Below, piece after piece: positions 1-32,427 of a stretch of DNA of 64,000 nt; the stretch's first letter is position 1; each line of letters opens with the position of its first letter. The position numbers and the translations under genes were made by a program. The notes under the pieces were generated by a model. That model ran no database searches. It was not told where the DNA came from and was given only the letters and a program-made list of their open reading frames with translations. Where the stretch lies: the NCBI RefSeq assembly GCF_055900595.2, contig NZ_CM148325.1; one strand, written 5' to 3'.

Positions 1-145
1 CTTCCTGGTATGCGGATTCTTTCGGGAGATAGTAATTGGCATCCGCCCATTCAACGGCGGTCTGTGGCTCCGGCCTGAACAGTGAGCGAAGCCCGGCGCG
101 GACAAAATGCCGCAGCCTGTTAACCTGACTGTTCGATATATTCAC
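1..145 (-). CDS. Terminase large subunit (lambda A-like), N-terminal part, truncated by window edge
   Basis: Reverse translation from GTG at 145 reads (M)NISNSQVNRLRHFVRAGLRSLFRPEPQTAVEWADANYYLPKESAYQE, which matches the lambda gpA N-terminus from memory; overlaps the end of Nu1 as in lambda. Confidence 0.7.
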   Translation of the reverse strand, partial: MNISNSQVNRLRHFVRAGLRSLFRPEPQTAVEWADANYYLPKESAYQE

Positions 146-665
146 TCAGCAACCCCGGTATCAGTTCATCCAGCGCGGCTGCTTTGTTCATGGCTTTGAT
201 GATATCCCGTTTCAGGAAATCAACATGTCGGTTTTCCAGTTCCGGAAAACGCCGCTGCACCGACAGGGGGATCCCGTCGAGAATACTGGCAATTTCACCT
301 GCGATCCGCGACAGCACGAAAGTACAGAATGCGGTTTCCACCACTTCAGCGGAGTCTCTGGCATTTTTCAGCTCCTGTGCGTCGGCCTGTGCACGCGTAA
401 GTCGGTGGCGTTCGTACTCAATAGTCCCTGGCTGGAGATCTGTCTCGCTGGCCTGCCGCAGTTCTTCAACTTCCCGGCGCAGCTTTTCGTTCTCAATTTC
501 AGCATCCCTTTCGGCATACCATTTTATAACGGCGGCAGAGTCATAAAGCACCTCATTACCCTTGCCACCGCCTCGCAGAACGGGCATTCCCTGTTCCTGC
601 CAGTTCTGAATGGTACGGATACTCGCACCGAAAATGTCAGCCAGCTGCTTTTTGTTGACTTCCAT
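120..665 (-). CDS. nohD: Terminase small subunit (Nu1-like)
   Basis: 181-aa ORF MEVNKKQLADIFGASIRTIQNWQEQGMPVLRGGGKGNEVLYD..., recognised as lambda Nu1 / DLP12 NohD. Confidence 0.9.
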   Translation of the reverse strand: MEVNKKQLADIFGASIRTIQNWQEQGMPVLRGGGKGNEVLYDSAAVIKWYAERDAEIENEKLRREVEELRQASETDLQPGTIEYERHRLTRAQADAQELKNARDSAEVVETAFCTFVLSRIAGEIASILDGIPLSVQRRFPELENRHVDFLKRDIIKAMNKAAALDELIPGLLSEYIEQSG

Positions 666-1248: not shown

Positions 1249-1607
1249 ACATCCCGGTTTCTTCCACCATCGCACCGGAAAAGCGACTATGAGGGTAACC
1301 CTGCGTCTGTCAGCACAGTAAAACCCGGTGTGCATCGTTTTTGATTATTCCCGCACACTCACGCAGAAGGAATTCCCCGTCGGGCTACGGTCATGGTTAA
1401 TGCGGGAATACGGCGACGATACAGCGCAGCTAAAAGGGTAATGGACAGAAAGAGCGGTTTATTTCATTCCACAGGATTCTGAGTGCCCCCCTCCTCCAAT
1501 AGGCTGAGCATCCACCTATATAGTTTTAATTTTCATCAATCCATTTAACTATCGTTTAATTGTTGTCACATAGGATTCTGCCGTTTTTAACAATGCAGGA
1601 TAATAAG

Positions 1608-1901
1608 ATGAAAAAAATGTTGTTTTCTGCCGCTCTGGCAATGCTTATTACAGGATGTGCTCAACAGACGTTTACTGTTGGAAACAAACCGACAGCAGTA
1701 ACACCAAAGGAAACCATCACCCATCACTTCTTCGTTTCGGGAATTGGACAGGAGAAAACTGTTGATGCAGCCAAAATTTGTGGCGGCGCAGAAAATGTTG
1801 TTAAAACAGAAACCCAGCAAACATTCGTAAATGGATTGCTCGGTTTTATTACTTTAGGCATTTATACTCCGCTGGAAGCGCGTGTGTATTGCTCACAATA
1901 A
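1608..1901 (+). CDS. borD: Bor lipoprotein (serum-resistance family)
   Basis: MKKMLFSAALAMLITGC... signal peptide with lipobox Cys; matches Bor. Start taken at the internal ATG 1608 of the track ORF 1560..1901. Confidence 0.9.
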   Translation: MKKMLFSAALAMLITGCAQQTFTVGNKPTAVTPKETITHHFFVSGIGQEKTVDAAKICGGAENVVKTETQQTFVNGLLGFITLGIYTPLEARVYCSQ

Positions 1902-1932: not shown

Positions 1933-2394
1933 CTATCTGCACTGCTCATTAATATACTTCTGGGTTCCTTCCAGTTGTTTTTGCATAGTGATCAGCCTCT
2001 CTCTGAGGGTGAAATAATCCCGTTCAGCGGTGTCTGCCAGTCGGGGGGAGGCTGCATTATCCACGCCGGAGGCGGTGGTGGCTTCACGCACTGACTGACA
2101 GACTGCTTTGATGTGCAACCGACGACGACCAGCGGCAACATCATCACGCAGAGCATCATTTTCAGCTTTCGCATTAGCTAACTCCTTCGTGTATTTTTCA
2201 TCCAGTGCAGCAACATCACGCTGGCGCATCTGCATGTCAGTAATTGCCGCGTTCGCCAGCTTCAGTTCTCTGGCATTTTTGTCGCGCTGGGCTTTGTAGG
2301 TAATGGCGTTATCACGGTAATGATTAACAGCCCATGACAGGCAGACGATGATGCAGATAACCAGAGCGGAGATAATCGCGGTTACTCTGTTCAT
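1933..2394 (-). CDS. rzpD: Rz spanin (i-spanin)
   Basis: [65 protein letters not shown]..., lambda Rz-like; 4-bp overlap with the lysozyme stop. Confidence 0.85.
1992..2174 (-). CDS. rzoD: Rz1 spanin (o-spanin lipoprotein), embedded in Rz in the +1 frame
   Basis: 60-aa [27 protein letters not shown]...[21 protein letters not shown], proline-rich lipoprotein wholly inside Rz. Confidence 0.8.
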
Positions 2395-2888
2395 TGCTGA
2401 CCCCACAAACAGATTTCACGCTCAATCTCACGACGAGTCATGAGACCTTTCCATTGCTTACCGCCAGCATATGTCCAGCGACGTAGCTGATCACATGCGC
2501 CTTTGATATCGCCCTGGTTTATTTTGCGAAGAAGCGTCGATGTTCTGAAATTGCCAGCGCCCACGTTGTAAACGAACGAGTAAAGAGCGCCGCGCGTTGT
2601 TTCCGGTATATCAACTTTTATGTACGGGTTAATTTGTCTGGCGACCGTGGCAAGGTCTTTATTCAGGAGGGCTTTGCATTCTGCTTTGGTATACGTTTTA
2701 CCGAGCATGATGTCTTTTCCTGTATGCCCGTGACATACAGTCCATACACCAACAATATCTTTGTATGGTATGTAGCTGACACCTTCCAGACCATCGTTAC
2801 CACTTGGGCCAGTGATTAACACTGATGCTATAGCAATTGCTCCGCCACCAATAGCAGCAGCAACGGCTTTTCGTAATGATGGAGGCAT
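2391..2888 (-). CDS. rrrD: Phage endolysin (lysozyme)
   Basis: 165-aa ORF with ...[25 protein letters not shown]...[12 protein letters not shown]..., recognised as DLP12 RrrD-type lysozyme. Confidence 0.9.
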
Positions 2889-3103
2889 TATTCACCTCTC
2901 GCAGCCTTGCGCTTATCTTCTTTAATCTTGAAATAAAGGTTTGTCAGGTACGTCAGCAGGCCAAATACCAGGCTACCCAGCACACCTATTGCTGCCCACT
3001 GTGAGGGCGTGACTTTATCGAGCAGCTGTAAAAACCAGTAACCGGCACTACCTGCTGAGGTGCCATAGGCGACACCCGTTGTTAACTTATCCATGGATTT
3101 CAT
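2888..3103 (-). CDS. essD: Holin
   Basis: [71 protein letters not shown]; small membrane protein directly upstream of the lysozyme. Confidence 0.8.
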
Positions 3104-3813
3104 AACCCCACCTCGCAGACAAAGCGGGTGTAAATTGAGGGAATACAACGTATCGCAAAAAAGCAGAAACGTAACAGACTCGGAGTCAGTGAATAACTCA
3201 GGTATTGAGTTATCAGCTAATATCGAGACTCAAAAAATGGAAAAACCAGCTCGACGGCGGGTTTAAGCTGTGTGACGAAGTAACCACTCTTAACAGCATA
3301 ACCAATTTTTTACGTACGTAAACCACTGAATGATATTTATGAGAATGCTACCGAGTGTTCAAAACACCACCACAAATATATAAGAAAACCTCAACAAATA
3401 ACCAATAAATAATTTCCGGCGTTATTTTTAGTTGATTTGAATTAAACCACCGAATTATAGAACCCCCATAAATAACAGCCATTAATATAAATTAGCTAAT
3501 AGGTTTATTTTTGTTCAAATAAGAGCCATAAATAGGTTTCGATAGAAAAAGTTCAGATAAAAATAGAGATCTACTTCACAAATTAAATGAGAAACTAAAA
3601 CTTACATCTTGAAATAATCACATTGATTAGATGAATATTTATCGCGCAGTGACATCATTTTTTAATAATAGTTCAAAAAAAAGGGCTCACGATGAAAAAA
3701 TTAACAGTGGCAATTTCTGCTGTAGCTGCATCAGTACTGATGGCGATGTCTGCTCAGGCAGCTGAAATTTATAATAAAGACAGTAACAAGCTGGATCTGT
3801 ACGGGAAAGTTAA

Positions 3814-3822
3814 TGCCAAGCA
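3814..3822. repeat. Left copy of the 9-bp IS10 target-site duplication (TGCCAAGCA)
   Basis: Identical 9-mer abuts both IS10 termini. Confidence 0.8.
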
Positions 3823-5151
3823 CTGATGAATCCCCTAATGATTTTGGTAAAAATCATTAAGTTAAGGTGGATACACATCTTGTCATATGATCAAATGGTT
3901 TCGCCAAAAATCAATAATCAGACAACAAAATGTGCGAACTCGATATTTTACACGACTCTCTTTACCAATTCTGCCCCGAATTACACTTAAAACGACTCAA
4001 CAGCTTAACGTTGGCTTGCCACGCCTTACTTGACTGTAAAACTCTCACTCTTACCGAACTTGGCCGTAACCTGCCAACCAAAGCGAGAACAAAACATAAC
4101 ATCAAACGAATCGACCGATTGTTAGGTAATCGTCACCTCCACAAAGAGCGACTCGCTGTATACCGTTGGCATGCTAGCTTTATCTGTTCGGGCAATACGA
4201 TGCCCATTGTACTTGTTGACTGGTCTGATATCCGTGAGCAAAAACGGCTTATGGTATTGCGAGCTTCAGTCGCACTACACGGTCGTTCTGTTACTCTTTA
4301 TGAGAAAGCGTTCCCGCTTTCAGAGCAATGTTCAAAGAAAGCTCATGACCAATTTCTAGCCGACCTTGCGAGCATTCTACCGAGTAACACCACACCGCTC
4401 ATTGTCAGTGATGCTGGCTTTAAAGTGCCATGGTATAAATCCGTTGAGAAGCTGGGTTGGTACTGGTTAAGTCGAGTAAGAGGAAAAGTACAATATGCAG
4501 ACCTAGGAGCGGAAAACTGGAAACCTATCAGCAACTTACATGATATGTCATCTAGTCACTCAAAGACTTTAGGCTATAAGAGGCTGACTAAAAGCAATCC
4601 AATCTCATGCCAAATTCTATTGTATAAATCTCGCTCTAAAGGCCGAAAAAATCAGCGCTCGACACGGACTCATTGTCACCACCCGTCACCTAAAATCTAC
4701 TCAGCGTCGGCAAAGGAGCCATGGATTCTAGCAACTAACTTACCTGTTGAAATTCGAACACCCAAACAACTTGTTAATATCTATTCGAAGCGAATGCAGA
4801 TTGAAGAAACCTTCCGAGACTTGAAAAGTCCTGCCTACGGACTAGGCCTACGCCATAGCCGAACGAGCAGCTCAGAGCGTTTTGATATCATGCTGCTAAT
4901 CGCCCTGATGCTTCAACTAACATGTTGGCTTGCGGGCGTTCATGCTCAGAAACAAGGTTGGGACAAGCACTTCCAGGCTAACACAGTCAGAAATCGAAAC
5001 GTACTCTCAACAGTTCGCTTAGGCATGGAAGTTTTGCGGCATTCTGGCTACACAATAACAAGGGAAGACTCACTCGTGGCTGCAACCCTGCTTACTCAAA
5101 ATCTATTCACACATGGTTACGTTTTGGGGAAATTATGAGGGGATCTCTCAG
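3823..5151 (+). mobile_element. IS10 insertion sequence (1329 bp)
   Basis: Begins CTGATGAATCCCCTAATGATTTTGGTAAAAATCATTAAG and ends ...ATTATGAGGGGATCTCTCAG (IS10 outside/inside ends from memory); length 1329 bp; encodes the transposase. Confidence 0.9.
3930..5138 (+). CDS. IS10 transposase
   Basis: 402-aa [70 protein letters not shown]..., recognised as Tn10/IS10 transposase. Confidence 0.9.
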
Positions 5152-5160
5152 TGCCAAGCA
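5152..5160. repeat. Right copy of the 9-bp IS10 target-site duplication (TGCCAAGCA)
   Basis: Same 9-mer as 3814..3822; removing IS10 plus one copy restores ...VNAKHYFSS... in frame. Confidence 0.8.
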
Positions 5161-6250
5161 CTACTTTTCCTCTAACGATGCAGATGATGGTGATACTACT
5201 TATGCCCGTCTTGGCTTCAAAGGTGAAACCCAAATCAACGATCAACTGACTGGTTTCGGTCAGTGGGAATATGAATTCAAAGGCAACCGCGCTGAATCTC
5301 AAGGTTCCTCCAAAGACAAAACCCGTCTTGCATTTGCAGGCCTGAAATTCGGTGACTACGGCTCAATCGATTACGGCCGTAACTACGGTGTAGCATACGA
5401 CATCGGTGCGTGGACTGACGTCCTGCCAGAATTCGGTGGTGATACCTGGACCCAAACAGATGTGTTCATGACTGGTCGCACTACTGGTGTTGCAACTTAT
5501 CGTAACAACGACTTCTTTGGTCTGGTCGATGGCCTGAACTTTGCTGCTCAGTATCAGGGTAAAAATGACCGCACTGACGTAACTGAAGCCAATGGTGATG
5601 GTTTCGGTTTCTCCACTACTTATGAGTATGAAGGATTCGGCGTGGGTGCAACCTATGCTAAATCAGATCGCACTGACGGTCAGGTCGCCTATGGTAAGAG
5701 CAAATTCAATGCCTCCGGCAAAAATGCGGAAGTATGGGCTGCAGGCCTGAAATATGATGCGAACAATATCTATCTGGCTACCACATATTCTGAAACTCAG
5801 AATATGACCGTTTTTGGTAATAACCATATTGCAAACAAAGCACAAAACTTTGAAGCAGTAGCACAATATCAGTTTGACTTCGGTCTGCGCCCATCTGTTG
5901 CTTACCTTCAGTCAAAAGGTAAAGACCTTGGTGTTCATGGTGACCGAGACTTAGTCAAGTATGTCGATGTCGGTGCTACTTACTACTTTAATAAAAACAT
6001 GTCCACTTTTGTTGATTACAAAATCAACTTAATTGACGATAGTAAGTTTACCAAAACAGCTGGTATTGATACTGATGACATCGTTGCTGTAGGTCTGGTT
6101 TACCAGTTCTAATCTGATTACGAAAAAGATATGTTGCGGGAGGCGTTGCCTCCCCAACATATAAGTGGCTCCCTCAAGCCACTTCCTTTAGAAGCACAAC
6201 CTTGCTTCTAACTATATAAACCTTCTGTTATATATTACCCTTTATTTTTG

Positions 6251-6275
6251 GGGGCGTCTCAACGCCCCATTTTTA
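6251..6275 (+). terminator. Rho-independent terminator downstream of nmpC
   Basis: GGGGCG-TCTCAA-CGCCCC hairpin followed by ATTTTTAATAATTTTT. Confidence 0.55.
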
Positions 6276-6301
6276 ATAATTTTTAGTAAACAATTGGCAT
6301 A

Positions 6302-6700
6302 TTAATTAGAGTTATTAACAACGATATCCATCTCTAACCGGATATCTAATGCCATTAACATCCCTTCAATTATGCCCTCAGCCTTTTGTAACCTTTTCCC
6401 GATATAACCATCAGAGCAGCAATGCTTACCTGCCAGTGACATGAATGTCATACCGACTACATAATAATCTACTAATAAATCGTGCAAATCGCTGTTGTTC
6501 TTTTTCAGACGGGCCATGCACCCGCAAATGATCATCGCGTCATCGTCACAACATTGCGGGCGAGATTTTACTTTTGAAGGAATTAATCCCTTAAAACCGG
6601 CGGCAATGGACGACCAGGTCACATCTTCATGATTATTAGCCGCCCACGCTCCCCAACGCTCAAGAACCATCTGAATATCACGCATCAACTTACTCCACAA
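6302..6700 (-). CDS. quuD: Late-gene antiterminator Q-like protein
   Basis: 132-aa ORF ...[18 protein letters not shown]...[36 protein letters not shown]...; Q position upstream of the lysis cassette; recognised as DLP12 QuuD. Confidence 0.75.
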
Positions 6701-6767
6701 AACTCAGACCAGAACGCCAATTACAAGCAAAAATCAACAAAACAGTATTAGTTGATTGTTATCTCTG

Positions 6768-6908
6768 ACTTCATACTCCTGCTCCTGTCAGTGTTTTGGC
6801 GTAATTCTTCAGTATTCGGTAATCGGTCAAAACAGAGCCGGGGAAACGATATAAGCGCAGACGCCCCCAGCGGTGGCGAAGAAGTTCTGCCATATTAAAC
6901 TCAAACAT
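6768..6908 (-). CDS. ylcG: Small prophage protein (YlcG-like), 46 aa
   Basis: Manual translation [45 protein letters not shown]; start overlaps the rusA stop. Confidence 0.4.
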
Positions 6909-7270
6909 CATTCATTCCCCATTTCGGTGATGGTCAGTTCCAGCCTCCCACCTTTGGTAACAGGCATCTTCACAACGCGGTAATCAACGACCTGAGCATC
7001 ATCCAGCCAGAAACCTGCTTTAGTGAGTGCGTCAAAAGCGGCTTTTTGCAGATTATCCAGGTCACGGCGACGGCGATCCGGCATGTGGCACTCAATGCGG
7101 ATTTTCACAGGCATAGCCAGGCCGATATCCAGCATTGCGTTTTTAATGATTCGGGCGACGTTATCGCGGTATGCCTGCCCCTCTGCGCTGACGTGCGTGC
7201 GCCCGCGATTATGGCGGTAATAGCGATTATTGCTCGGAGGCCAGGGTAGTGTGATGTGGTAAGTATTCAC
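6908..7270 (-). CDS. rusA: Holliday-junction resolvase RusA
   Basis: 120-aa [54 protein letters not shown]..., recognised as RusA. Confidence 0.9.
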
Positions 7271-7559
7271 GCCTTAATTACCCTCTCTTTCAGCCAGATA
7301 ACCTGCGTTCTCGCCATACCTTCCAGCGCGCATTCTTTTGCATATCCAGCGTCAACAAAATGCGTGCGGCGGTCGATTTCGTCGTGGCAGGCAGAACATG
7401 CAATGGTGGCAATCAGGTCTGGCGGTTTGATACCGGTACCGCACAATCCAGCCAGCCGGATATGTGCCAGTACAGACGTCTCAGAATTGCCATTACATAC
7501 GCCAGGGATTCTTACCTGGCATTCCCGACCACGCGCTGCTTTTCTCAAATCAGCCATGA
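7267..7559 (-). CDS. ybcO: Nin-region protein YbcO (Cys-rich, putative nuclease)
   Basis: [62 protein letters not shown]...; start at the internal ATG of the track ORF. Confidence 0.8.
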
Positions 7560-7720
7560 TTCCTCCTTGCTGCCAGTCGCAACCATTTTTTATCAACCAG
7601 GCTAGCGGTATATCCGAGCAGTGTTGGTATTTCGGATGGCTTCAGCTCAGGCTTACGCTTACGACGATTTGATACTCTGTAGATGTGTCCGTTCATGACA
7701 CGAATAAGCGGTGTAGCCAT
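7547..7720 (-). CDS. ninE: NinE-like small protein
   Basis: Manual translation [56 protein letters not shown]; start overlaps the ybcN stop, stop overlaps the ybcO start. Confidence 0.55.
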
Positions 7721-8175
7721 TACGCCTCCTGCTTGTCGCGGAGCAGCTGGAACTCGCAGCTCTGCGGAATAGTCAGGTGGCAGCCAATATTCATCGCCCA
7801 GGCTTCAACCTTACACAGGAAGACATACATCTCTCCGGTATCAAGATTGGAGGTATGGCGTAACGACTGGATAGTGGTGATATCACCGGTTACGACATCA
7901 ACCAGGTCTTTGGTTTCATAACCGAGATATGTGTGTTTGAGAGCATCTTTTACCCAAGCTGGAGTGGCGAACGTTTTACCCCTGCTGATGAGGTATTCAC
8001 TGATTTCGCTGTACCACATGTGGCTGAGTGCATTCTGGGAAAGACTGCGTTTCTCACGCCACGGTTTAAGCACCAGGCGAAAGCATTTGCCCTCCTCCAG
8101 ATAAGGCTGGATCTGCCGACCGATAGCGGTGAAGTTGCCGCGATGTAATTTGATGCCGTCTTGTGAGAGGTTCAC
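7720..8175 (-). CDS. ybcN: NinB-family recombination protein
   Basis: 151-aa ORF (GTG start) [55 protein letters not shown]..., recognised as DLP12 YbcN. Confidence 0.85.
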
Positions 8176-8208
8176 GCTTCCCCTCCGCAGAGGTCAAACG
8201 TTGGATGC

Positions 8209-8333
8209 AAAAAAACGCAGGTGCATTTCTGCATCTGTGAAGGGAGAAGAGAGTTTGGATTGTATGTGCGCATAAACGTCCCCGTTTAGCGCAGAAGTCA
8301 CCGGAGTTGTTCAGGCTCCGATGACATGATTAT
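8209..8333. repeat. Direct repeat A (about 125 bp) flanking the accessory cassette
   Basis: AAAAAAACGCAGGTGCATTTCTGCATCTGTGAAGGGAGAAGAGAGTTTGGATTGT... aligns with 10596..10720, with about 16 substitutions and one 1-bp indel by manual alignment. Confidence 0.75.
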
Positions 8334-8359
8334 GGCGGGTTGATTATTGAAAATCAAAG

Positions 8360-9037
8360 TTAATCGTACGAGTCGAGTATGTTCTGAAACGCCCAGCCAT
8401 CCTCCTTAGGAACACAAGACAGAATCGAATGAATTAGATCCCCTGCGGAAAGAAGTAACCCTTCTTGCCCTTCAAGAAAATAACGCCATTTAGGTCCATG
8501 AAACAGATTGTTCCGTAACCGGAAACAAACGAACAAGCACACTGCAAGCTGAGTCTCAGGCTCGGTTGTCATAGCTTGCATGGCTGAAAAACAGTCATCT
8601 CTCGCCTTTTGAGAGGTGTGGTGTAATTCCCCGCATAGGCTTTCAAACTTGCTTTTATCATTTACATAGCGTTCTGAAAAAAAATCGTATGTACACTTGA
8701 GAACCCCCAGATCCACAACCTCCATTTGCAAAAGACGATTGGCATATTTCGCACTTTTGCCTTGCCCCCCAGCGCAATTAAGAAGTAGAGACTCGAAGAA
8801 AGAGAAGTACAAAAAATAACGATTAACGGCGGTAAGGATAGATGGGGTAATCCTGCCTTCTGCATTAATCAACTCGTCAAATTCTGATGAAAAATCCAAC
8901 TGTTCATCCTTTTCCATTATATTCGGCCATTTATTGATATTGCACATCAGTCGCTCTTGGCAATGACAGGTTTGCTCTCGGTAATGTCTCAAACGCCCCA
9001 AAAAGTAGTCTCGCAAATGCTCTAGTTGCTCGCGCAT
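8360..9037 (-). CDS. Hypothetical protein with a HEPN-like Rx4H motif (possible abortive-infection RNase)
   Basis: 225-aa ORF; C-terminal region contains ...CLFVCFRLRNNLFHGPKWRYF... (R-x4-H); AT-rich; weak RBS, start codon uncertain (alternative MEKDEQLDF...). Confidence 0.45.
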   Translation of the reverse strand: MREQLEHLRDYFLGRLRHYREQTCHCQERLMCNINKWPNIMEKDEQLDFSSEFDELINAEGRITPSILTAVNRYFLYFSFFESLLLNCAGGQGKSAKYANRLLQMEVVDLGVLKCTYDFFSERYVNDKSKFESLCGELHHTSQKARDDCFSAMQAMTTEPETQLAVCLFVCFRLRNNLFHGPKWRYFLEGQEGLLLSAGDLIHSILSCVPKEDGWAFQNILDSYD

Positions 9038-9161
9038 AACAACTTCGGCGATAACCGGCTATTCGGTCGTTCTTTATACGCTACGCTTGAAGGCGCAAGG
9101 CCAACGCTTACCTTGTCACGTTCCTATTGCGGTTTTGCTGCAATGTTCCTGTCAGTCTGAC

Positions 9162-9189
9162 ATAAAAAACCCCTCAATCATCTGAGGGG
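9162..9189 (-). terminator. Rho-independent terminator after the 66-aa gene
   Basis: On the minus strand CCCCTCA-GATGAT-TGAGGGG followed by TTTTTTAT. Confidence 0.55.
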
Positions 9190-9197
9190 ATTAGACA

Positions 9198-9398
9198 TCA
9201 TTGCTTCCAATACTTTTGAACCCGGATATTCATTGGCACACAAACATTTTCATAGATAGGGCCGCTAACAGTCATGACTATATAAATACCATCAAGACCA
9301 TCAATATTAAGCGAGAGTCTATCTCCGGCTCTAACCTCACGCTCTAGTTCAATATCTTCTACTCGTCCAGTATCATCGAAAGTCACTGAATACATCAT
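9198..9398 (-). CDS. Hypothetical small protein (66 aa)
   Basis: ORF MMYSVTFDDTGRVEDIELEREVRAGDRLSLNIDGLDGIYIVMTVSGPIYENVCVPMNIRVQKYWKQ followed by its own terminator; no recognisable family. Confidence 0.35.
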   Translation of the reverse strand: MMYSVTFDDTGRVEDIELEREVRAGDRLSLNIDGLDGIYIVMTVSGPIYENVCVPMNIRVQKYWKQ

Positions 9399-9560
9399 TT
9401 CAAATTTCCATCTAAGTGCATGAGGTGTCTAACGAAAATACCATAAAGAGAATTTGATTACATTGAACTTTTTCAGTGCTTACTTGGCTTATCTGAAGCC
9501 TTAATCATTGCCGCCCAGTGCGCTACCTGCTTGCATCCATTCAGCGCCTAATATGTAAAA

Positions 9561-10169
9561 CTATTGCAATCTAGCCTGACGCAAATGTGGCAATACCCTG
9601 CTCCACTTATTATCCTGCCAAGGCTGGAATTTTACATGTGCCGTTTTTCTGGCAAGGATTTCGCGCGCCTTATGTAGTATCTGGGGATATTCTTGCTCGA
9701 TAGAAGTAAAGCGACCGGCTTCGCGGTGTTCCGCAACCTGAAGAAGTGGAGTAACGTTCTGGCAGGCGGTTAACATCGTATCACTTGCTCGCCATAACCA
9801 AGCAAGTGTGCAAAGTTCGTTATCAGTGAATTGTTTTGTGATCGGGGATTGTTGAACTTCTCGATCGAGAATATCCAGAACCCAGCGGCGGAACTCTTTG
9901 GCTACAGGAGTTCGTGCAAACATGGCGATCAAATGGGCTCCGCGAAGGCTAAATACTCGAGACTCCTGCATTCCACGAGGGGTGGTCACTTTGACCACCC
10001 TTGTCATCATATCTGTAAATTCATCTGAGTGACGAGAGTAAATGCGCTGAACTGCTTTATCGTCCGCATATTCCAGAGCTAAACCAACTTCAGTGGCAGT
10101 AAGCCAAATTCTGTTATTGTGGCAAATTGGGGTAAACGTCGTTTTGTGGAATGCTAATTGAGTAGTCAT
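9561..10169 (-). CDS. Bro-N-like / phage antirepressor-family protein
   Basis: 202-aa ORF with N-terminal ...FHKTTFTPICHNNRIWLTATEVGLALEY...RGMQESRVFSLRGAHLIAMFARTPVAKEFRRWVLDIL...; good SD (GAGGTGA) 5 nt upstream of ATG. Confidence 0.55.
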   Translation of the reverse strand: MTTQLAFHKTTFTPICHNNRIWLTATEVGLALEYADDKAVQRIYSRHSDEFTDMMTRVVKVTTPRGMQESRVFSLRGAHLIAMFARTPVAKEFRRWVLDILDREVQQSPITKQFTDNELCTLAWLWRASDTMLTACQNVTPLLQVAEHREAGRFTSIEQEYPQILHKAREILARKTAHVKFQPWQDNKWSRVLPHLRQARLQ

Positions 10170-10331
10170 AGTATCACCTCATCAGGTTAACCATCACCAC
10201 CAACGACGCCAATCGACTGGTGGTGAACTGTGCAAGGTTGGCGTAACCGGCTACTCAAACCCGGCGCTCCCGAAGAAGCCCTCACACAGCCCACCATAAT
10301 TTGGGCGTAGCCGTGCTTAGCGCATAAAAAA

Positions 10332-10346
10332 ACCGCTTAACGCGGT
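10332..10346 (-). terminator. Possible rho-independent terminator upstream of the Bro-N-like gene
   Basis: Minus strand ACCGC-GTTAA-GCGGT followed by TTTTTTTAT; short stem. Confidence 0.35.
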
Positions 10347-10432
10347 ATGCGTTGAGTAGTATTCCGGGACGCCAATCCCGTGTGCCGATTTTGCGGCAAC
10401 GCACAGAATATAGCGCCGGATAAATAATGTCG

Positions 10433-10621
10433 TCAACCCTTGCAAATGGGTGGCGCGATGATCACTACTACCACTATAACCGCTCCAACTGTTGCAACTA
10501 CTTTAGGCCAAGACATCAAGATTTCCATATCACCTTTAGCTGCGAAACGAACAGAGGTTCCCATCTCTATACTGCCGAGGCCAAACACCGAATATAAAAA
10601 ACCGCAGGTGCATTTCTGCAT
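10433..10621 (-). CDS. Possible small hydrophobic peptide (about 31 aa from the internal start MEILMSWPKVVATVGAVIVVVVIIAPPICKG)
   Basis: Track ORF of 62 aa; internal ATG preceded by AAAGGTGAT; hydrophobic C-terminal segment; starts inside direct repeat B. Confidence 0.2.
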   Translation of the reverse strand: MQKCTCGFLYSVFGLGSIEMGTSVRFAAKGDMEILMSWPKVVATVGAVIVVVVIIAPPICKG

Positions 10622-10720
10622 CTATGACGGGAGAAGATAGTTTGGATTGTGTGGGCTCATAAACTCCCCGTTTGGTGCAGTAGTCACCGTAGTTGTTCAT
10701 ATTCTGATGACATGATAATT
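10596..10720. repeat. Direct repeat B (about 125 bp), partner of 8209..8333
   Basis: AAAAAACCGCAGGTGCATTTCTGCATCTATGACGGGAGAAGATAGTTTGGATTGT..., same orientation as repeat A. Confidence 0.75.
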
Positions 10721-10917
10721 TCCTATTGAATAGAAAAAATTAACACTACTCATTCTTATGACTAGAAAAAGCAATCATGCTAATAATCATTGTTGTTCCA
10801 GTTCCAAATGCAGCGAAATAATCACTAATATTTTTTCTACCGGTTTCGACTTTGATGCTATATTCTGCTAACACCTAACTAACACTACGTTTCACACAGC
10901 AATTACATGGAAATAAC

Positions 10918-11265
10918 ATGACTATCAAAGCGACTGACATAGAGATTCTTCATCGTTATGCTGAAGGGGTAATGGAACGTTCTAACCATCATGCAAAAAA
11001 TGTTGGTGCAGCCGCTCTTACATTGCTAGGAGGTGTTATCTGGAAAGCCCTGCCCGGCTCAATCGAGATAAGAACGTATAACGGAAGTCTTGCAAATATG
11101 GTGTGGTGGCAAAGCGAAAGAACATTAAAAAATTATGCAATCTCATACAACCATAATTCATGTGAAATTGAAATGAGAGATGAATCAGTCAAAGGTGCTG
11201 TATTATTTAGCATTTCCAACGAAACCACTCCAGAAAAAATATTATCACAGCTTTCTGAGCTTTAA
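10918..11265 (+). CDS. Hypothetical protein (115 aa), oriented against the surrounding early operon
   Basis: ORF MTIKATDIEILHRYAEGVMERSNHHAKNVGAAALTLLGGVIWKALPGSIEIRTYNGSLANMVWWQSERTL...; AT-rich; no family recognised. Confidence 0.45.
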   Translation: MTIKATDIEILHRYAEGVMERSNHHAKNVGAAALTLLGGVIWKALPGSIEIRTYNGSLANMVWWQSERTLKNYAISYNHNSCEIEMRDESVKGAVLFSISNETTPEKILSQLSEL

Positions 11266-11270
11266 TTAAA

Positions 11271-11288
11271 GGCGGTGCTAACACCGCC
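11271..11288 (-). terminator. Hairpin terminator between P and the 115-aa gene (tR2-like position)
   Basis: GGCGGTG-CTAA-CACCGCC; on the minus strand followed by TTTAATTAAA. Confidence 0.45.
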
Positions 11289-11469
11289 CATACCATTACT
11301 CCACATCTTACGCAACTTGATAATTATGCTCTATTAAATACCCACAATATTTCATCAATGCATGGGTCAGCTATAAAATGTTTACCGTGGTAATTCCTGT
11401 TTTCGCAACATCTCAAAAGAACAATAAACACTGTATTTCTTCAAGTAACGAAGAATCTTTCTTTGCCCG

Positions 11470-12171
11470 TCATACACTTGCTCCTTTCAGCCCAAACTTA
11501 GCTTTGATTTCTGCGATCTTCGCCAGAGCCTGTGCACGATTTAGAGGTCTACCGCCCATGACAGGAAGTTGTTTTACTGGTTCAGGTATCGCCTCACCAC
11601 GGTTAATTCGCGCGGTCATACAGGTCAGCTCATCGGCAGCTTTACGCCGTAATTCCGCGTCAGTCAGCGCATTGGCCCGCATGTTCTGGTACAGGTTGGT
11701 AACCAACCAGTAGTGCGCGTTTGATTTCCATGGATAAGACTCTGCGTCCGGATACAGGCCACGCTTCCGGCAATACTCGTAAACCATATCAACCAGCTCG
11801 CTAGCGTTTGGCAGCCCGGCGGTAACGGATGCTTCTTCCCGGCACCAGGCAACAAACTGCCCGGGTGATGGCAGGAATGGTCGATTCTGCCGACGGGCTA
11901 CGCGCATTCCAGCGTTAACCTGTTCCATCGTGGTGATCCCATTTTCCCGGAAAGCCAGAACCCACTGGCGGCGGATTTCGTTCAGTTCGTTCTGGTCACG
12001 GTTAGCCAGGCTCGCAGGGAAAGTTGCCAGTAACTGGCTGAACACACCGTTGATGATCTGCGCTACCTGCTGTACCTGCGGCTTTTCGTCGTACTGTTCC
12101 GGCATGTTGTTGGCGATCCGACGCATCTGCTCACGGTCAAAGTTAACCATCTGTGCGGCGATGTTTTTCAT
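11470..12171 (-). CDS. P: Replication protein P (DnaB helicase loader), lambda-like
   Basis: 233-aa ORF MKNIAAQMVNFDREQMRRIANNMPEQYDEKPQVQQVAQIINGVFSQLLATFPASLANRDQNE..., recognised as near-identical to lambda P. Confidence 0.92.
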   Translation of the reverse strand: MKNIAAQMVNFDREQMRRIANNMPEQYDEKPQVQQVAQIINGVFSQLLATFPASLANRDQNELNEIRRQWVLAFRENGITTMEQVNAGMRVARRQNRPFLPSPGQFVAWCREEASVTAGLPNASELVDMVYEYCRKRGLYPDAESYPWKSNAHYWLVTNLYQNMRANALTDAELRRKAADELTCMTARINRGEAIPEPVKQLPVMGGRPLNRAQALAKIAEIKAKFGLKGASV

Positions 12172-13097
12172 AGATCAACCCCGTAAATCCAGTCTGTGTT
12201 TGTCAGGTCGAGTTTTGGTTTGCTGGCTGTCACGCCTGCCTGTTGCTTGTTACGGTTGATTTCGAGCTGGGTCCACTTGTCGCGGAGTTTGGCCGGACTT
12301 AGCACGTTACCGGACCAGAAGTTGTCCTGGCATGCCCAGCGGAACAGCACGCACATGTCGCGGTGGTTACGTCCGTCACGTTCACGCATCAGGCGGATAT
12401 CGTTAGCCCACCCTGCAAAATTCGGTTTTCTGGCTGATGGCGCGATGGTCTTCACCATGTCAAACATCCACTCTGCGGCGGTCAGGTCTTCTGCTGTCCC
12501 CCACTTGCTGCCGCTCTGAATCGCAGCATCCGGTTTCACCACAGGAAGGTCGTTTTCTGGCTGATCAGAGGATTCGCCAGAATTCTCGGACGAATAAGGT
12601 TTTATATTGTCTTTTGTTAGTTTGTCTTTTGTGTTTACCTGATTCGGGTAAACGCCTTTACCTGATTTGGGTAAACTTTTCTTACCTGATTCAGGTAAAT
12701 TTACCTCTTTCAGGTAAACTTTATTTTTCTTACCTGATTCGGGTAATGTTGACCATTCACTGACCACATTATTAATACCGATATTCCGCCCGCTCTGAAT
12801 CAAAATCCCACGCTTTACCAGAACACTTTTTGCAGCAGAACACTTGTGCGGTAATATCTCGGTCAATCCAGACAGTTGCTCGTTGCTCACCCAATCCAGT
12901 TTTTTATTAAAGCCATATGTTTTGCGCATGACAGCCAGGAAGACCAGAAGCTGGTGCTGTGTTAATCCGGCCAGCATCACAGCTTCCAGCAACTCATTTG
13001 CAATGCGCGTATAACCATCATCGAGATCTGCCACGCGCGGCTCCTTTTGTGCCGCATCCGGCACTGGAAAATTGAATATCTCAGCAGTGTTTGCCAT
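12168..13097 (-). CDS. O: Replication initiator O (lambda-like C-terminus, divergent iteron-binding N-terminus)
   Basis: Start taken at MANTAEIFNFP... (SD GGGAGGA upstream) inside track ORF 12168..13187; C-terminus ...WMFDMVKTIAPSARKPNFAGWANDIRLMRERDGRNHRDMCVLFRWACQDNFWSGNVLSPAKLRDKWTQLEINRNKQQAGVTASKPKLDLTNTDWIYGVDL matches lambda O. Confidence 0.85.
   Translation of the reverse strand: MANTAEIFNFPVPDAAQKEPRVADLDDGYTRIANELLEAVMLAGLTQHQLLVFLAVMRKTYGFNKKLDWVSNEQLSGLTEILPHKCSAAKSVLVKRGILIQSGRNIGINNVVSEWSTLPESGKKNKVYLKEVNLPESGKKSLPKSGKGVYPNQVNTKDKLTKDNIKPYSSENSGESSDQPENDLPVVKPDAAIQSGSKWGTAEDLTAAEWMFDMVKTIAPSARKPNFAGWANDIRLMRERDGRNHRDMCVLFRWACQDNFWSGNVLSPAKLRDKWTQLEINRNKQQAGVTASKPKLDLTNTDWIYGVDL
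12635..12746. repeat. Phage replication origin: five iterons (TTACCTGATTCGGGTAAA-like inverted repeats) inside the O gene, next to an AT-rich stretch
   Basis: Copies at about 12635, 12658, 12682, 12701 and 12730, each with TTACC...GGTAA arms; AT-rich run at 12600..12634. Confidence 0.65.
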
Positions 13098-13183
13098 AAT
13101 TCCTCCCGCAATGAGTGTGTTACGATTTGCACCTGAAAGTCGGTTCTGTTCCAGCAGACCGGCTTTCGCCATTTCTGAACCTG

Positions 13184-13723
13184 TCATATCGCCCCCAGCA
13201 TGGTAGTAACCATCGCCATCAATGGACCAGCCAGATCTGGGTCCACACGAAACATCGATACAATACCTTCACTAATTTCCTTCAGTTTCTGGTGGCGTGG
13301 TGCGTTGAGAATGACAGCCTGTTTTGCCTCACTGAGTTCCTTTTCCATTTCAGCCAGCCGAGCTATGAAGCTATCCTGCTCAACCAGGTGGCCGCGATAT
13401 TCCAGCGGTAGTACCGCCAGAATTGCCGGGGTCAGTTCACGCACGTTATTTCGGTATTTTTCAGAATCGAATTTGTTATCGAGGAAGCGGAACAGCTTCT
13501 GGCGTGCACGGCTGACATCATCAGGGAAATCGATGGTGCCGCCGCCCTGCTCCCGATACTCATTCACAATGAGTGCGGCAACGACATCCTGATTATCTAC
13601 AGCCGACCAGGCGCGGACGGCATCACGGATTTTTTCGTGGCCTGGAGCTTGTTTTGTTTGAGAACGATTTATCACCGCAGTCGGGCTAAATCCGCTAGTC
13701 TGTTGGTATGTAAGTGGTTGCAT
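13184..13723 (-). CDS. CII-position regulator, YdaT-like
   Basis: 179-aa ORF with strong SD (AAAGGAG); ...VNEYREQGGGTIDFP...LTPAILAVLPLEYRGHL... resembles Rac YdaT (EEYLRQGGGELPL / LIPAILAILPRELRHRL, from memory). Confidence 0.55.
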   Translation of the reverse strand: MQPLTYQQTSGFSPTAVINRSQTKQAPGHEKIRDAVRAWSAVDNQDVVAALIVNEYREQGGGTIDFPDDVSRARQKLFRFLDNKFDSEKYRNNVRELTPAILAVLPLEYRGHLVEQDSFIARLAEMEKELSEAKQAVILNAPRHQKLKEISEGIVSMFRVDPDLAGPLMAMVTTMLGAI

Positions 13724-13792
13724 AATTGACTCCTTTAGTTTGAATTGACTGTTAAGTTGATTGCTTATTGTTAAAGAGCGTGAAATGGAAAT

Positions 13793-14023
13793 TTAAGCTG
13801 CGTTCTTTTCAGTGTGTGGAAACAACTTCGGAAGATCCGGGCGAATCTGGTATGCCTTCACTACTCCACCAGTAGCCGTAACAATGCTGCCGACATGTTC
13901 AGGGGATACCTTTGCTTTGTTGTGAAGCCACTTATAGACGGCCTGCTGTGAAACTTCGCAGGCAGCGCCTAGTTTCTTTTGTGAACCAACGATATTGATC
14001 GCTGTTTTGATGGCTGGGTTCAT
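13793..14023 (-). CDS. cro: Cro-like HTH repressor (YdaS-type)
   Basis: 76-aa ORF MNPAIKTAINIVGSQKKLGAACEVSQQAVYKWLHNKAKVSPEHV...; divergent from cI. Confidence 0.6.
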   Translation of the reverse strand: MNPAIKTAINIVGSQKKLGAACEVSQQAVYKWLHNKAKVSPEHVGSIVTATGGVVKAYQIRPDLPKLFPHTEKNAA

Positions 14024-14127
14024 AACAACCTCCGTGGTTAATTTGAATCAAGATTAAAACTATGGTTGTTTTTAGTCAACAACCATTTTCGTTTGATGAA
14101 ATAAAACCTTGGTTGTACATTTGGACT
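14024..14127. promoter_or_regulatory. Divergent cro/cI control region (oR-like operators with pR/pRM)
   Basis: Perfect palindrome ATGGTTGTT-tttagtc-AACAACCAT at 14062..14086 plus further TGGTTGT/ACAACA half-sites; cI AUG at 14128 lacks an SD, consistent with a leaderless pRM-type transcript. Confidence 0.5.
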
Positions 14128-14817
14128 ATGAAAACAACACTCTCAGAAAGACTTAAAGAAGCCAGATTAGCGCGAGGCCTTACACAAAAGGCGCTTGGGG
14201 ATTTGGTCGGGGTTAGCCAAGCAGCTATTCAGAAAATCGAAACAGGGAAAGCTAACCAAACAACTAAAATCGTGGAGATCGCGAACGCTTTGGGTGTGCG
14301 CGCAGAATGGTTATCTTCTGGCGTTGGAAATATGTCAGACAGTACAGTGCAACCAATACAAACAACTGTCAGCCATTCCAAATACTTTAAGATTGACGTT
14401 CTTGATATCGAAGTGAGTGCCGGGCCGGGAGTCATCAACCGTGAGTTTGTAGAAGTTCTACGTTCGGTTGAGTATTCGTTTGACGATGCTCGTCACATGT
14501 TCGATGGCAGGAAGGCGGAAAATATCCGTATCATTAACGTACGCGGTGACAGCATGTCAGGAACGATCGAACCAGGTGATCTGCTATTCGTTGATATCAC
14601 TGTTAAATCTTTCGACGGTGATGGTATCTATGCGTTTCTGTACGACGACACAGCCCATGTAAAGCGCCTGCAAATGATGAAGGATAAACTGCTGGTTATC
14701 TCTGATAACAAGAGCTACTCACCGTGGGACCCAATCGAGAAAGACGAGATGAACCGGGTATTCATCTTCGGGAAAGTCATCGGGAGCATGCCGCAGACGT
14801 ATAGGAAGCATGGATAA
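14128..14817 (+). CDS. cI: CI-type prophage repressor (N-terminal HTH, C-terminal LexA-like S24 peptidase)
   Basis: MKTTLSERLKEARLARGLTQKALGDLVGVSQAAIQKIETGK... then ...EVSAGPG...INVRGDSMSGTIEPGDLLFVD...HVKRL... (Ala-Gly cleavage site, Ser/Lys dyad). Confidence 0.85.
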   Translation: MKTTLSERLKEARLARGLTQKALGDLVGVSQAAIQKIETGKANQTTKIVEIANALGVRAEWLSSGVGNMSDSTVQPIQTTVSHSKYFKIDVLDIEVSAGPGVINREFVEVLRSVEYSFDDARHMFDGRKAENIRIINVRGDSMSGTIEPGDLLFVDITVKSFDGDGIYAFLYDDTAHVKRLQMMKDKLLVISDNKSYSPWDPIEKDEMNRVFIFGKVIGSMPQTYRKHG

Positions 14818-14912
14818 TTCGACATAAATTCAACAAGTTAACTTTGGCTTCAAAAAAGCATCGATAACATTGCATTATATTTTTCCTTTTGTCTAACTTA
14901 AAAGGATGAACA

Positions 14913-15638
14913 ATGGAAGAACGTGGGAATTACCTAATAGACCCCCTAGAAGTAATTGGTTCTGGCGGTTTTGGCCTTGTAGAAAAAATAAGGTTATATA
15001 ACTCACAAAGAAAAATTTGTGGTCTATATGCCAGAAAAATTTTACGACCTGATGCAACAGATCCTGAACTCTTTACCAGATTTGAACGAGAAGTAAGATA
15101 TCAAACTGAATGCCTGCATACTAATATTGTCCAAATATTCATATGCCACTTACAGAATGCTCAGCCTTGGTTCGTAATGGAACTAGCAGAAACAAATCTT
15201 GAAGAAGAAATAAAAAGTGGAACTCTTACAAAGGCTGAAAAAATCTCTATTGTAAAAATGGTACTAAATGCCGTCGGATGGATTCATAAGAAAGGATATC
15301 TTCATCGGGATATAAAACCACTAAATGTACTAAAATTTAAAGATGGAATTTATAAGTTATCTGACTTCGGCCTTGCAAAAAATGTGTCACCAGATGCCAA
15401 TACACAGCTATTAACACAAATTGGCCAATACCCCGCTACTCCTAAATACTTTGATTACAACGTTTTCCTCAACGGATATTCAAAACAATCAGATATATAT
15501 TCAATTGGTATTTTAATTGAAGAATTAAATATTGATGGTTTTGATGATATAATAAACAAATGTACGCATAGACAACTTAACAAAAGATTCCTGACCGTAG
15601 AGCAGATCTTTGAGGAATTGGAGTTGAAACGCTTATGA
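14913..15638 (+). CDS. Hanks-type (eukaryotic-like) Ser/Thr protein kinase, compact catalytic domain only
   Basis: 241 aa; glycine-rich loop GSGGFG; catalytic loop HRDIKPLN; DFG motif SDFGLAK; SD AGGA 7 nt upstream; AT-rich. Confidence 0.85.
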   Translation: MEERGNYLIDPLEVIGSGGFGLVEKIRLYNSQRKICGLYARKILRPDATDPELFTRFEREVRYQTECLHTNIVQIFICHLQNAQPWFVMELAETNLEEEIKSGTLTKAEKISIVKMVLNAVGWIHKKGYLHRDIKPLNVLKFKDGIYKLSDFGLAKNVSPDANTQLLTQIGQYPATPKYFDYNVFLNGYSKQSDIYSIGILIEELNIDGFDDIINKCTHRQLNKRFLTVEQIFEELELKRL

Positions 15639-16378
15639 TTAGCATACTCTCATCATCCATATTTTCTGTACCAAAACATAATGGCAGGGAAAATCAAGAT
15701 AGCGTGCTTTATCCACTTCAAACACCAAATGGTTATCTTATGGCTATAGCTGATGGGGTTGGTGGTTATAAAGGAGGAAAAGAAGCATCTGCAGCAGTAA
15801 TAAATCATTTGTATAGTATTAAAGACAGCTTCACTCATGAAGACAATGTCTTATCCTTACTTAAGACCCTACAAGAAAAGGTGGCATCTCTTTCGTCAGT
15901 TGATAAAGAATTAGCATCTGCTGCTACAACTTTAACAATGTGCCTACTTCACAATCAAGGTCTAACAATTATACATGTAGGTGACTGTCGTGTTTATTTA
16001 AAAAATGGAAATAAGCTAATCCAATTAACAACAGATCATACTCAACATCAAATGTTGATAGATAGCGGTATTTATACAGCTCGACAGCTCAAAAATGCAA
16101 AAGGTAAAAATATTATTACAACTGCACTTGCTGCCAAGATCCCCCTTCAACATCAAGTCATAAATATTGATAAAGATGAACTTCCTCTTGACGATGGTGT
16201 TCTATCTCTATTCATCATGTCTGATGGCGCGCATACCTTTTGGGAGCAACGCCCACGATTTTCTTACCGTACATTGTCAACCGCATCAAGGTTTGCCTCC
16301 AGCCTAATGCGAAGAATAGAGACAAAAGGCCCGACTGACGATTATTCTCTTATAGCGGTAAATGTAAAGTATTTGTAA
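15635..16378 (+). CDS. PP2C-family (PPM) Ser/Thr protein phosphatase
   Basis: 247 aa; AIADGVGG and HVGDCRVYL metal-binding motifs, ...FIMSDGAHT...; start ATG overlaps the kinase stop (ATGA). Confidence 0.8.
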   Translation: MISILSSSIFSVPKHNGRENQDSVLYPLQTPNGYLMAIADGVGGYKGGKEASAAVINHLYSIKDSFTHEDNVLSLLKTLQEKVASLSSVDKELASAATTLTMCLLHNQGLTIIHVGDCRVYLKNGNKLIQLTTDHTQHQMLIDSGIYTARQLKNAKGKNIITTALAAKIPLQHQVINIDKDELPLDDGVLSLFIMSDGAHTFWEQRPRFSYRTLSTASRFASSLMRRIETKGPTDDYSLIAVNVKYL

Positions 16379-16382
16379 ACTT

Positions 16383-16410
16383 CCCGGCCACCGTGCCGGG
16401 TTTTCTTTTA
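16383..16410 (+). terminator. Rho-independent terminator ending the cI-kinase-phosphatase operon
   Basis: CCCGGC-CACCGT-GCCGGG followed by TTTTCTTTTAT. Confidence 0.6.
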
Positions 16411-16479
16411 TCCCCTCCCCTCATCACGTATACCGTTCAAAAAACCACCACAATCTCCCTTCAGTTATCGCTATGCGAT

Positions 16480-16620
16480 GCAAGTCACAAAATAAATCCA
16501 TCCTAAATACAACCAGTTACATCTAAAACAACCAATAAAACAACTTTTGTTGTTGACGATAAAACAACTATAGTTTTAAATAAATTCATCGCAACAACAC
16601 AACGATACGGCAACCACCTG
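16480..16620 (+). promoter_or_regulatory. Putative oL/pL region (operator half-sites and a candidate leftward promoter)
   Basis: Several ACAACCA/ACAAC half-sites similar to the oR sites; candidate -35 TTGACG and -10 TAAATA with an 18-bp spacer reading toward gam-bet-exo. Confidence 0.35.
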
Positions 16621-16774
16621 ATTCACCGTTGCGATGACCGCTTAGATCCGCAGCTTGAATTTCAGCAGGCTTCGGGGAGTGCGAGGGATGAAACGGACGC
16701 GTGAACGTCGGTGTGACCAGCTGAAATCAACTCAACATTTCATACCTTAGTCGCTTCAACGAGGCGGCTTAGTT

Positions 16775-17065
16775 ATGACAACCGGCGGCCATCCACCGCC
16801 TGAATACGCGCAGAAGTCTTTATATGTTCAGCAGCCCAGCTTACGGGCAGGAGTTTTTATGGTTCATCAACATTACGGAACGCAGACCGTTAATCGAGGT
16901 GCGGTCATGCCAGGAATGCTGGTCAAACACAAAGATGGTACCTGGACTGCATCAGCTAATTTACGCGGACGGCTTTATCTGCATCGCGGCATCGAGCGCA
17001 CTTATACCCGTGATTTGCTCGTGGAAGTTTTTCTCGACGGACGCGGTAACGGCCTGAATCACTAA
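16775..17065 (+). CDS. Hypothetical small protein between pL and gam (96-aa track ORF; an internal start with SD AGGAG at 16859 gives 68 aa)
   Basis: ...[68 protein letters not shown]; occupies the kil/cIII position; not recognised as N. Confidence 0.35.
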
Positions 17066-17141
17066 CCCCCCTTTCCTGTTTTCCTTATCAGCCTGGCATT
17101 TCGCGGGCGATATTTTCACAGCCATTTTCAGGAGTTCAGCC

Positions 17142-17438
17142 ATGAACGCTTATTACATTCAGGATCGTCTTGAGGCTCAGAGCTGGGCGCGTCACTACCA
17201 GCAGATCGCCCGTGAAGAGAAAGAGGCAGAACTGGCAGACGACATGGAAAAAGGCCTGCCCCAGCACCTGTTTGAATCGCTATGCATCGATCATTTGCAA
17301 CGCCACGGGGCCAGCAAAAAAGCCATTACCCGTGCGTTTGATGACGATGTTGAGTTTCAGGAGCGCATGGCAGAACACATCCGTTACATGGTTGAAACCA
17401 TTGCTCACCACCAGGTTGATATTGATTCAGAGGTATAA
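17142..17438 (+). CDS. gam: Gam (RecBCD inhibitor), short form
   Basis: 98-aa [63 protein letters not shown]..., matches lambda GamS; an in-frame TGA at 17055 precludes a long form from an upstream ATG. Confidence 0.9.
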
Positions 17439-17443
17439 AACGG

Positions 17444-29493: not shown

Positions 29494-29494
29494 C

Positions 29495-29707: not shown

Positions 29708-29814
29708 TCCCTTTCCCGGCCTGTATCAACAGGCCGGTTCTCTTTTCAGACTTTTTCCCTCTACGCCCCGTTCATCCATGCTGATAGCATCGACATTTTG
29801 CCGAAGCGACCATC

Positions 29815-30336: not shown

Positions 30337-30371
30337 CCGGATGCGAAAACTCGCATCCGGCAATAGCGCAA

Positions 30372-31757: not shown

Positions 31758-31930
31758 CGAAGATTCCGTTTAGACATGTGTGGGTAATTGAGTTGCGTAT
31801 AATACCCATATTTCCCGCGCGAATCAGCATACATTGCGTGATGATCCGATCGTGCGGTTATGCTATAACACCACCCTATATATGACCCGAATCGGGTTGA
31901 AGCACCAATCAAACGGAACAGGATGCAAAA

Positions 31931-32425: not shown

Positions 32426-32427
32426 TC

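Follow-up and report, generated by a model that had tools for sequence, protein, structure and literature searches.

The analyzed window is a stretch of Escherichia coli DNA of 64,000 nucleotides, in which a prophage porin gene is split by a copy of IS10. The porin belongs to a lambdoid prophage that occupies argU, the site of DLP12, and the gene order was supported by the colinear PGAP annotation of strain AR_0085. The porin gene lies between Q and the holin gene and is transcribed against the late operon. The prophage features are as follows.

120–665, minus strand: Nu1/nohD, full length
1933–2406, minus strand: Rz/Rz1 (rzpD), lysis cassette
2391–2888, minus strand: lysozyme rrrD, lysis cassette
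2888–3148, minus strand: holin essD, lysis cassette (whole cassette, 1933–3148)
3692–6112, plus strand: porin gene with IS10 inside
6302–6700, minus strand: Q (quuD), the late-gene antiterminator; the late operon lies downstream of it and crosses the porin gene in antisense
6908–7270, minus strand: rusA
Beyond rusA, minus strand: nin-region genes, P and O replication genes, and cII
Further on, plus strand: cI-like repressor (14062–14817), bet, and exo
20383–21546, plus strand: integrase
21562–21638: tRNA-Arg(TCT), argU, which the prophage abuts

The prophage crosses the left edge of the window at the full-length Nu1/nohD gene, and its early region is apparently intact (integrase, bet/exo, cI, cII, O, P, anti-repressor, and Q). 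Several other genes were recorded along its length. Downstream of the lysis cassette lies a gene for a bor/iss-type serum-resistance lipoprotein (1560–1901, plus strand), listed with a TTG start; an internal ATG is the more probable start, which gives MKKMLFSAALAMLITGC and agrees with the iss gene annotated at 294 bp in AR_0085. In the nin region, a 225-aa ORF (8360–9037, minus strand) gave weak matches to PHROG families of unknown function and may be a moron or an accessory prophage gene. Downstream of the cI-like repressor, 14913–15638 (plus strand) aligns with the N-terminal portion of a serine/threonine kinase family of PHROG (positions 7–264 of 415), and the adjoining 15635–16378 (plus strand) aligns with the C-terminal portion of an unannotated family (positions 276–519 of 565). 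Either one gene has been split here or the two ORFs form a module of two genes, which might encode a prophage exclusion kinase.

Coverage of positions 6100–22100 reached 82% at most among the complete E. coli genomes, and none of these matched the whole IS10/porin locus at 100%, the best match being AR_0085 at 99.4%. The chromosomal flank at 22000–40000 is 100% identical to that of E400634 and several other E. coli isolates, which identifies the source as E. coli. E400634 has another prophage at argU, which is degraded but retains its porin intact, and no isogenic pre-insertion state was found.

The interrupted porin gene and the insertion junction

The insertion and the porin fragments on either side of it are composed of the following parts.

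3692–3822, plus strand: 5′ porin fragment, with the signal peptide and the first ~20 mature residues
3692–3826, plus strand: truncated ORF of 44 aa, ending at a TGA supplied by IS10
3814–3822: left copy of the 9-bp target-site duplication, TGCCAAGCA, abutting the IS10 outside end
3823–5151, plus strand: complete solitary IS10 of 1329 bp, outside end at 3823 and inside end at 5151 (direct reading and script)
3823–3845, plus strand: outside-end terminal inverted repeat, imperfect, with 17 of the first 22 nt matching the inside end
3868–3937, minus strand: RNA-OUT antisense RNA (from pOUT), RF00240, full length (1–70)
3930–5138, plus strand: IS10 transposase gene, 402 aa, uninterrupted ORF
5129–5151, minus strand: inside-end terminal inverted repeat, containing the GATC (Dam) site at IS nt 1320
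5152–5160: right copy of the 9-bp target-site duplication, TGCCAAGCA, abutting the IS10 inside end
5161–6112, plus strand: 3′ porin fragment, from the third base of codon 44 to the stop, without a signal peptide

When 3692–3822 was joined to 5161–6112, an open 360-codon ORF ending in VYQF was obtained, as the preliminary description had predicted for excision of the element with one repeat copy. The restored protein is identical over its full length (100%) to the intact porins of phages ev017, ev207, 2G7b, Perceval, and PhiR11_1. It scored 521 bits against the OmpC subfamily model NF007841 (cut-off, 484), and it shares 319 of 355 aligned residues with K-12 NmpC (b0553). The differences from K-12 NmpC cluster in two variable stretches inside the protein, and the K-12 protein has a different C-terminus from the IS5 junction onward. 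These comparisons support the assignment of the interrupted gene to the nmpC/Lc/OmpD type of prophage porins, in agreement with its original naming as nmpC.

IS10 is the only lesion in the porin gene, with no secondary damage. On the basis of the reading frames, the gene is predicted to be a null allele that yields a 44-aa peptide, its downstream part being left without a promoter or a signal peptide, and precise excision should in principle revert the knock-out. The equivalent 5′ piece in AR_0085 is annotated by PGAP as a porin pseudogene lacking the C-terminus. An ORF of 325 aa (5135–6112, plus strand) begins at an ATG inside the IS10 inside end, overlaps the transposase stop, and is in frame with the 3′ porin fragment; it is probably an incidental, meaningless fusion that would give a signal-less porin.

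The duplication flanking the element is perfect, as first described. TGCCAAGCA occurs on the plus strand of the 64-kb window only in these two copies, and the probability that two flanking 9-mers agree by chance is 4^-9 (~4e-6). E. coli strain 510016 has the empty site (200 bp, uninterrupted) with 100% identity, and the uninterrupted site was present at 80% coverage or more in 2,492 of the 5,426 complete E. coli genomes searched; therefore, the 9-mer is native to the porin gene and was then duplicated. A tandem double TGCCAAGCA was looked for in the native alleles among the empty-site matches and was not found. The insertion had been placed after the codon for H44. Codon 44 is correct, but the break lies within it, past the second base; H44 is kept since IS10 begins with C, the base that also comes next in the native gene; the TGA supplied by IS10 follows directly. 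Because of this same coincidence, the direct repeat reads as 11 bp (TGCCAAGCACT), and it is 9 bp given the canonical IS10 ends. The IS10 target consensus is quoted as NGCTNAGCN (PMC10044804). TGCCAAGCA agrees with it at five of the six specified positions, with the mismatch at the third consensus base. The 64-kb window contains 8 perfect and 296 one-mismatch consensus sites.

Structure and kinship of the IS10 copy

The element begins with CTGATGAATCCCCTAATGATTTTGG at the outside end (longer stretch, CTGATGAATCCCCTAATGATTTTGGTAAAAATC) and finishes with GGGGAAATTATGAGGGGATCTCTCAG at the inside end. These are the canonical IS10 termini (outside, CTGATGAATCCCC; inside, CTGAGAGATCCCC), the same as in the Tn10 copies of plasmid R100. 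The transposase ORF runs without a stop through 3930–5138, bearing out the intact 402-aa protein first reported, and it scored 402 bits against the IS4-family transposase model NF033591 of NCBIfam (cut-off, 152). Residues D97, D161, and E292, the catalytic DDE residues of IS10 transposase, were all found. GATC sites occur at nt 67 and nt 1320 of the element, one per end, and are the Dam sites of the IS10 ends. RNA-OUT was matched by the Rfam model RF00240 with 97.3 bits (gathering score, 41; E = 3e-20). Length, ends, near-identity, 9-bp duplication, target, 402-aa DDE transposase, and RNA-OUT were thus all found as in IS10. Such elements are named "IS4-like element ISVsa5 family" by PGAP.

The two arms of Tn10 in R100 were used as references: IS10-Left adjoins jemA/gltS, and IS10-Right adjoins tetD, the left and right naming following the gene order and the map of Tn10. 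The identification of the element as IS10 was confirmed by this alignment, in agreement with the RNA-OUT and IS4-family matches. The window IS10 differs from IS10-Left at 4 of 1329 nt (99.7% identity) and from IS10-Right at 11 of 1329 nt (99.2% identity), and the two R100 arms differ from each other at 15 of 1329 nt. The sole differences from IS10-Left are at nt 24, 25, 27, and 47, where the window copy has the IS10-Right state, and nt 83–1300 are those of IS10-Left with no difference. By this pattern of nucleotide states, the window IS10 is a natural hybrid, or mosaic, of both Tn10 arms. It resembles IS10-Left and IS10-Right in its length of 1329 bp, termini, 9-bp duplication, NGCTNAGCN-like target, and 402-aa DDE transposase, and also in having RNA-OUT/pOUT at its outside end and a Dam site at each end; unlike them, it is solitary and a hybrid of the arms.

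The window transposase is identical to the IS10-Left protein WP_001352368.1 and differs from the IS10-Right protein at residues 266, 381, 389, and 398. An identical transposase is encoded by the IS10 at the porin site in four other loci that were fetched (L001, L002, L006, and L008; both orientations). According to a passage of PMC11148124 that cites Foster et al. (1981), the IS10-Left-type transposase is poorly active or inactive in classical genetics. Because the window transposase is of this classically weak type, the insertion may stem from catalysis in trans by another IS10 copy outside the window. The survey also shows elements with an "IS10-Left-type" transposase occupying new sites in wild strains.

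Of the 5,426 complete E. coli genomes, 1,173 hold an IS10 copy that covers 80% of the element or more. E. coli 55989, which has IS10 at nine places, and one other isolate have copies with 100% identity to the window IS10. The knock-out of the porin gene is, on these sequence comparisons, clean and recent, because the duplication is perfect, the restored ORF is undamaged, and the IS10 is 100% identical to the 55989 copies.

The orientation of the element determines where its outward transcription would lead. It had been suggested that outward promoters of IS10 could affect antisense transcription toward Q. This suggestion was not upheld: because RNA-OUT lies on the minus strand at 3868–3937, pOUT, whose direction was taken from the Rfam RNA-OUT model, exits at the 3823 end, away from Q and toward the porin 5′ end and the lysis genes. 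Q lies beyond the IS10 inside end, on the side opposite to the pOUT exit, and no outward promoter is known at that end. A simple sigma-70 consensus scan did not pick up pIN or pOUT and gave no information on the late promoter. Transcription from pOUT (RNA-OUT) leaving via 3823 would be antisense to the porin 5′ end and sense for essD/rrrD/rzpD, ~0.7 kb away. The porin promoter would transcribe into the IS10 outside end in the transposase sense, and IS10 reportedly protects itself against transcription that enters its outside end in this sense (Davis, Simons, and Kleckner, 1985). For the Q-dependent late transcript (minus strand), the way to essD-rrrD-rzpD would be 1.3 kb longer and would lead through the transposase gene in antisense; antitermination should let it pass IS10.

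IS10 at the same porin site in other genomes

A comparison with the nmpC locus of related strains, which had been proposed as a check, was performed across the 5,426 complete E. coli genomes, with a synthetic opposite-orientation junction as the query for reverse insertions. The 9-bp porin site that is empty in the 2,492 genomes mentioned above carries IS10 in 14 genomes, in both orientations. The same orientation as in the window was found in six genomes (AR_0085, two O111:H11 strains, two BM28 strains, and 16843). The opposite orientation, with the exact junction, was found in eight records (98203, 2017-03-3CC, two WI isolates, LR-64-1, 88COLEC, MMC-J-0085, and plasmid pEC21Z048-103K). As a rough scale, ~540 genomes would have both IS10 and the site if the two were independent, and 14 carry the insertion.

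Eight loci were fetched (L001–L004 and L006–L009). In all eight, the IS is 1329 bp long, at the identical position, and flanked by a 9-bp duplication, and the porin ORF is restorable to 360–371 aa. The target alleles are as follows.

TGCTAAGCA: six fetched loci, perfect match (6/6) to NGCTNAGCN
TGCCAAGCA: window and AR_0085, 5/6 to NGCTNAGCN
TGCAGAGCA: P7-type plasmid allele (L008), 5/6 to NGCTNAGCN

The four same-orientation loci, whose DNA was compared, comprise IS10-Left, IS10-Right, and an intermediate variant, and the annotations of the four opposite-orientation loci give three different transposase proteins. Together, the fetched loci hold at least four transposase variants and three target alleles. 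Their porin alleles are 83–99.7% identical to that of the window, and the porins hit lie in the argU prophage, in a remnant next to yedK, at a site next to mcr-1, and on a phage-plasmid. Because the IS10 variants, porin alleles, and genomic contexts differ between loci, these sequences are read as several independent insertions at one position. The window and AR_0085 are set apart by 15 differences in 1772 nt of flank and by four clustered diagnostic positions within IS10; these differences could reflect independent hits, or later recombination or gene conversion. That alleles with one mismatch were also hit repeatedly hints that sequence context contributes too.

Three further genomes (PI12, HCP5S3_I2, and LCP30S3_I5) matched the junction query as two joined pieces ~0.5–0.7 kb apart, which suggests IS10/IS4-family insertions elsewhere in or near the same porin gene. 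In PLSDB, pSvP1 (139,066 bp) and CP100027.1 matched the L008 junction through the flank and the shared terminal repeat only, which is taken to mean that they carry IS10 at the same site in the other orientation.

Two insertions of this kind had been reported previously. The K-12 strain BM28 carries IS10R in nmpC at codon 44 of 346 (PMC10044804). It shares with the window the nucleotide position, the orientation, and the 9-bp duplication. Its nmpC allele, in contrast, is that of K-12, with target TGCTAAGCA and an additional IS5 at the 3′ end, and its element is a classical IS10R, 12 nt off the window IS10, from a laboratory event derived from Tn10. In pSvP1, IS10 was reported in the P7 nmpC gene with the direct repeat TGCTCTGCA (PMC6906374), which, read on the other strand, is the TGCAGAGCA of L008. 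The P1-like plasmids (pSvP1 and pEC21Z048-103K) have the insertion at the same codon position of a homologous porin, also with a 9-bp duplication; they differ from the window in their porin allele (83% identical, 299/360), in the target TGCAGAGCA, and in being phage-plasmids rather than a lambdoid prophage.

The nmpC gene of K-12 carries IS5 near its 3′ end (PMC11148124; also the annotation of the K-12 BM28 locus), so that the first description was right about IS5 inactivation in MG1655. The DLP12 nmpC of MG1655 belongs to the same family of prophage porins and has likewise been silenced by IS insertion, but the element is IS5 rather than IS10 and sits at the 3′ end of the gene. The two events are independent, and BM28 has both. 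The view of the window insertion as a different and probably recent event holds as regards its recency and its separateness from the K-12 IS5, but it is not unusual, the same site having been hit in 14 genomes.

Interpretation of the insertion

The explanation that we favor, with a probability of approximately 95%, is that a solitary, intact IS10 moved by cut-and-paste transposition into a preferred 9-mer at porin codons 41–44 of the argU lambdoid prophage. The insertion would have followed the usual cut-and-paste route of the IS4/IS10 family, with staggered cleavage and repair duplicating TGCCAAGCA. The site would have been chosen for its fit to the consensus NGCTNAGCN, to which most alleles are a perfect match (TGCTAAGCA) and the window allele has one mismatch. 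Site choice appears to reflect mostly target preference rather than selection, because the nmpC gene of BM28 was already interrupted by IS5 and every examined IS10 lies at one 9-mer.

Selection is the likeliest of the alternatives, although we consider it unlikely. The recurrence would then mean that porin loss is adaptive, through reduced entry of antibiotics, colicins, or phages, especially in multidrug-resistant isolates. Clinical or resistant carriers do occur (AR_0085, the MCR-1 strain 88COLEC, and WI2), and other IS elements disrupt the gene in laboratory lineages, namely IS5 in K-12 and, according to the hit table only, an IS1 flanked by two porin fragments in E. coli B strains. However, any disruption would suffice for selection, whereas all examined IS10 copies lie at exactly the same consensus 9 bp. 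Selection is also improbable in BM28, which gained IS10 in an nmpC gene already broken near its 3′ end, and the site is uninterrupted in the 2,492 genomes. The association with resistance is moreover confounded, resistant strains being the likeliest carriers of Tn10/IS10.

Much less probable still is a foreign origin of the element, either by cloning or propagation of the DNA in an IS10-bearing host (DH10B, XL1-Blue, and similar) or as an assembly artefact. That IS10 can jump out of a cloning host into the DNA cloned there is a documented artefact, according to a passage of PMC11148124 citing Kovarik et al. (2001), and such an insertion would leave a perfect 9-bp duplication too. The variant in the window, however, is neither the IS10-Right nor the IS10-Left of Tn10 and equals chromosomal copies in the wild E. 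coli 55989 at 100%, independent complete genomes of wild isolates have IS10 at the same site, and modern whole-genome assemblies bypass cloning hosts. The composite alternative, in which the element is one arm of a Tn10-like transposon and not a solitary IS, was rejected as hardly conceivable. Tn10 is the commonest vehicle bringing IS10 into strains, but only one outside end and one inside end are present in the 64-kb window, the 9-bp duplication directly abuts the single 1329-bp unit, and there are no tet genes near IS10. Cut-and-paste insertion of a solitary IS10 into a preferred target is retained as the explanation of the locus.

The insertion in the window is real, ordinary, and of an already known kind, and the recurrent use of the site is the only mildly new point; the importance of the finding beyond annotation is slight. 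For annotation, the locus should be described as an IS10-disrupted porin pseudogene and not as separate "PhoE" and "porin" fragments, the PGAP labels given in other genomes. The strain presumably lacks the lysogenic-conversion porin, and its outer-membrane permeability and its susceptibility to phages and colicins could shift slightly.

The recurrent capture of IS10 at one 9-bp site illustrates the target specificity of IS10 in natural populations. As a tentative extension, possible but rather doubtful at present, codons 41–44 of the nmpC-family porins of prophages and phage-plasmids might be a natural IS10 hotspot of E. coli, used independently at least eight times in both orientations and tolerating a third-base change (GCT to GCC or GCA), which would imply a contribution of the surrounding sequence or of the local DNA structure besides that of the consensus. 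In a bolder form, this idea would add convergent selection for porin loss in drug-resistant lineages. If the idea is true in either form, the site could be used as it stands, as a natural reporter of how active IS10 is across collections of genomes.
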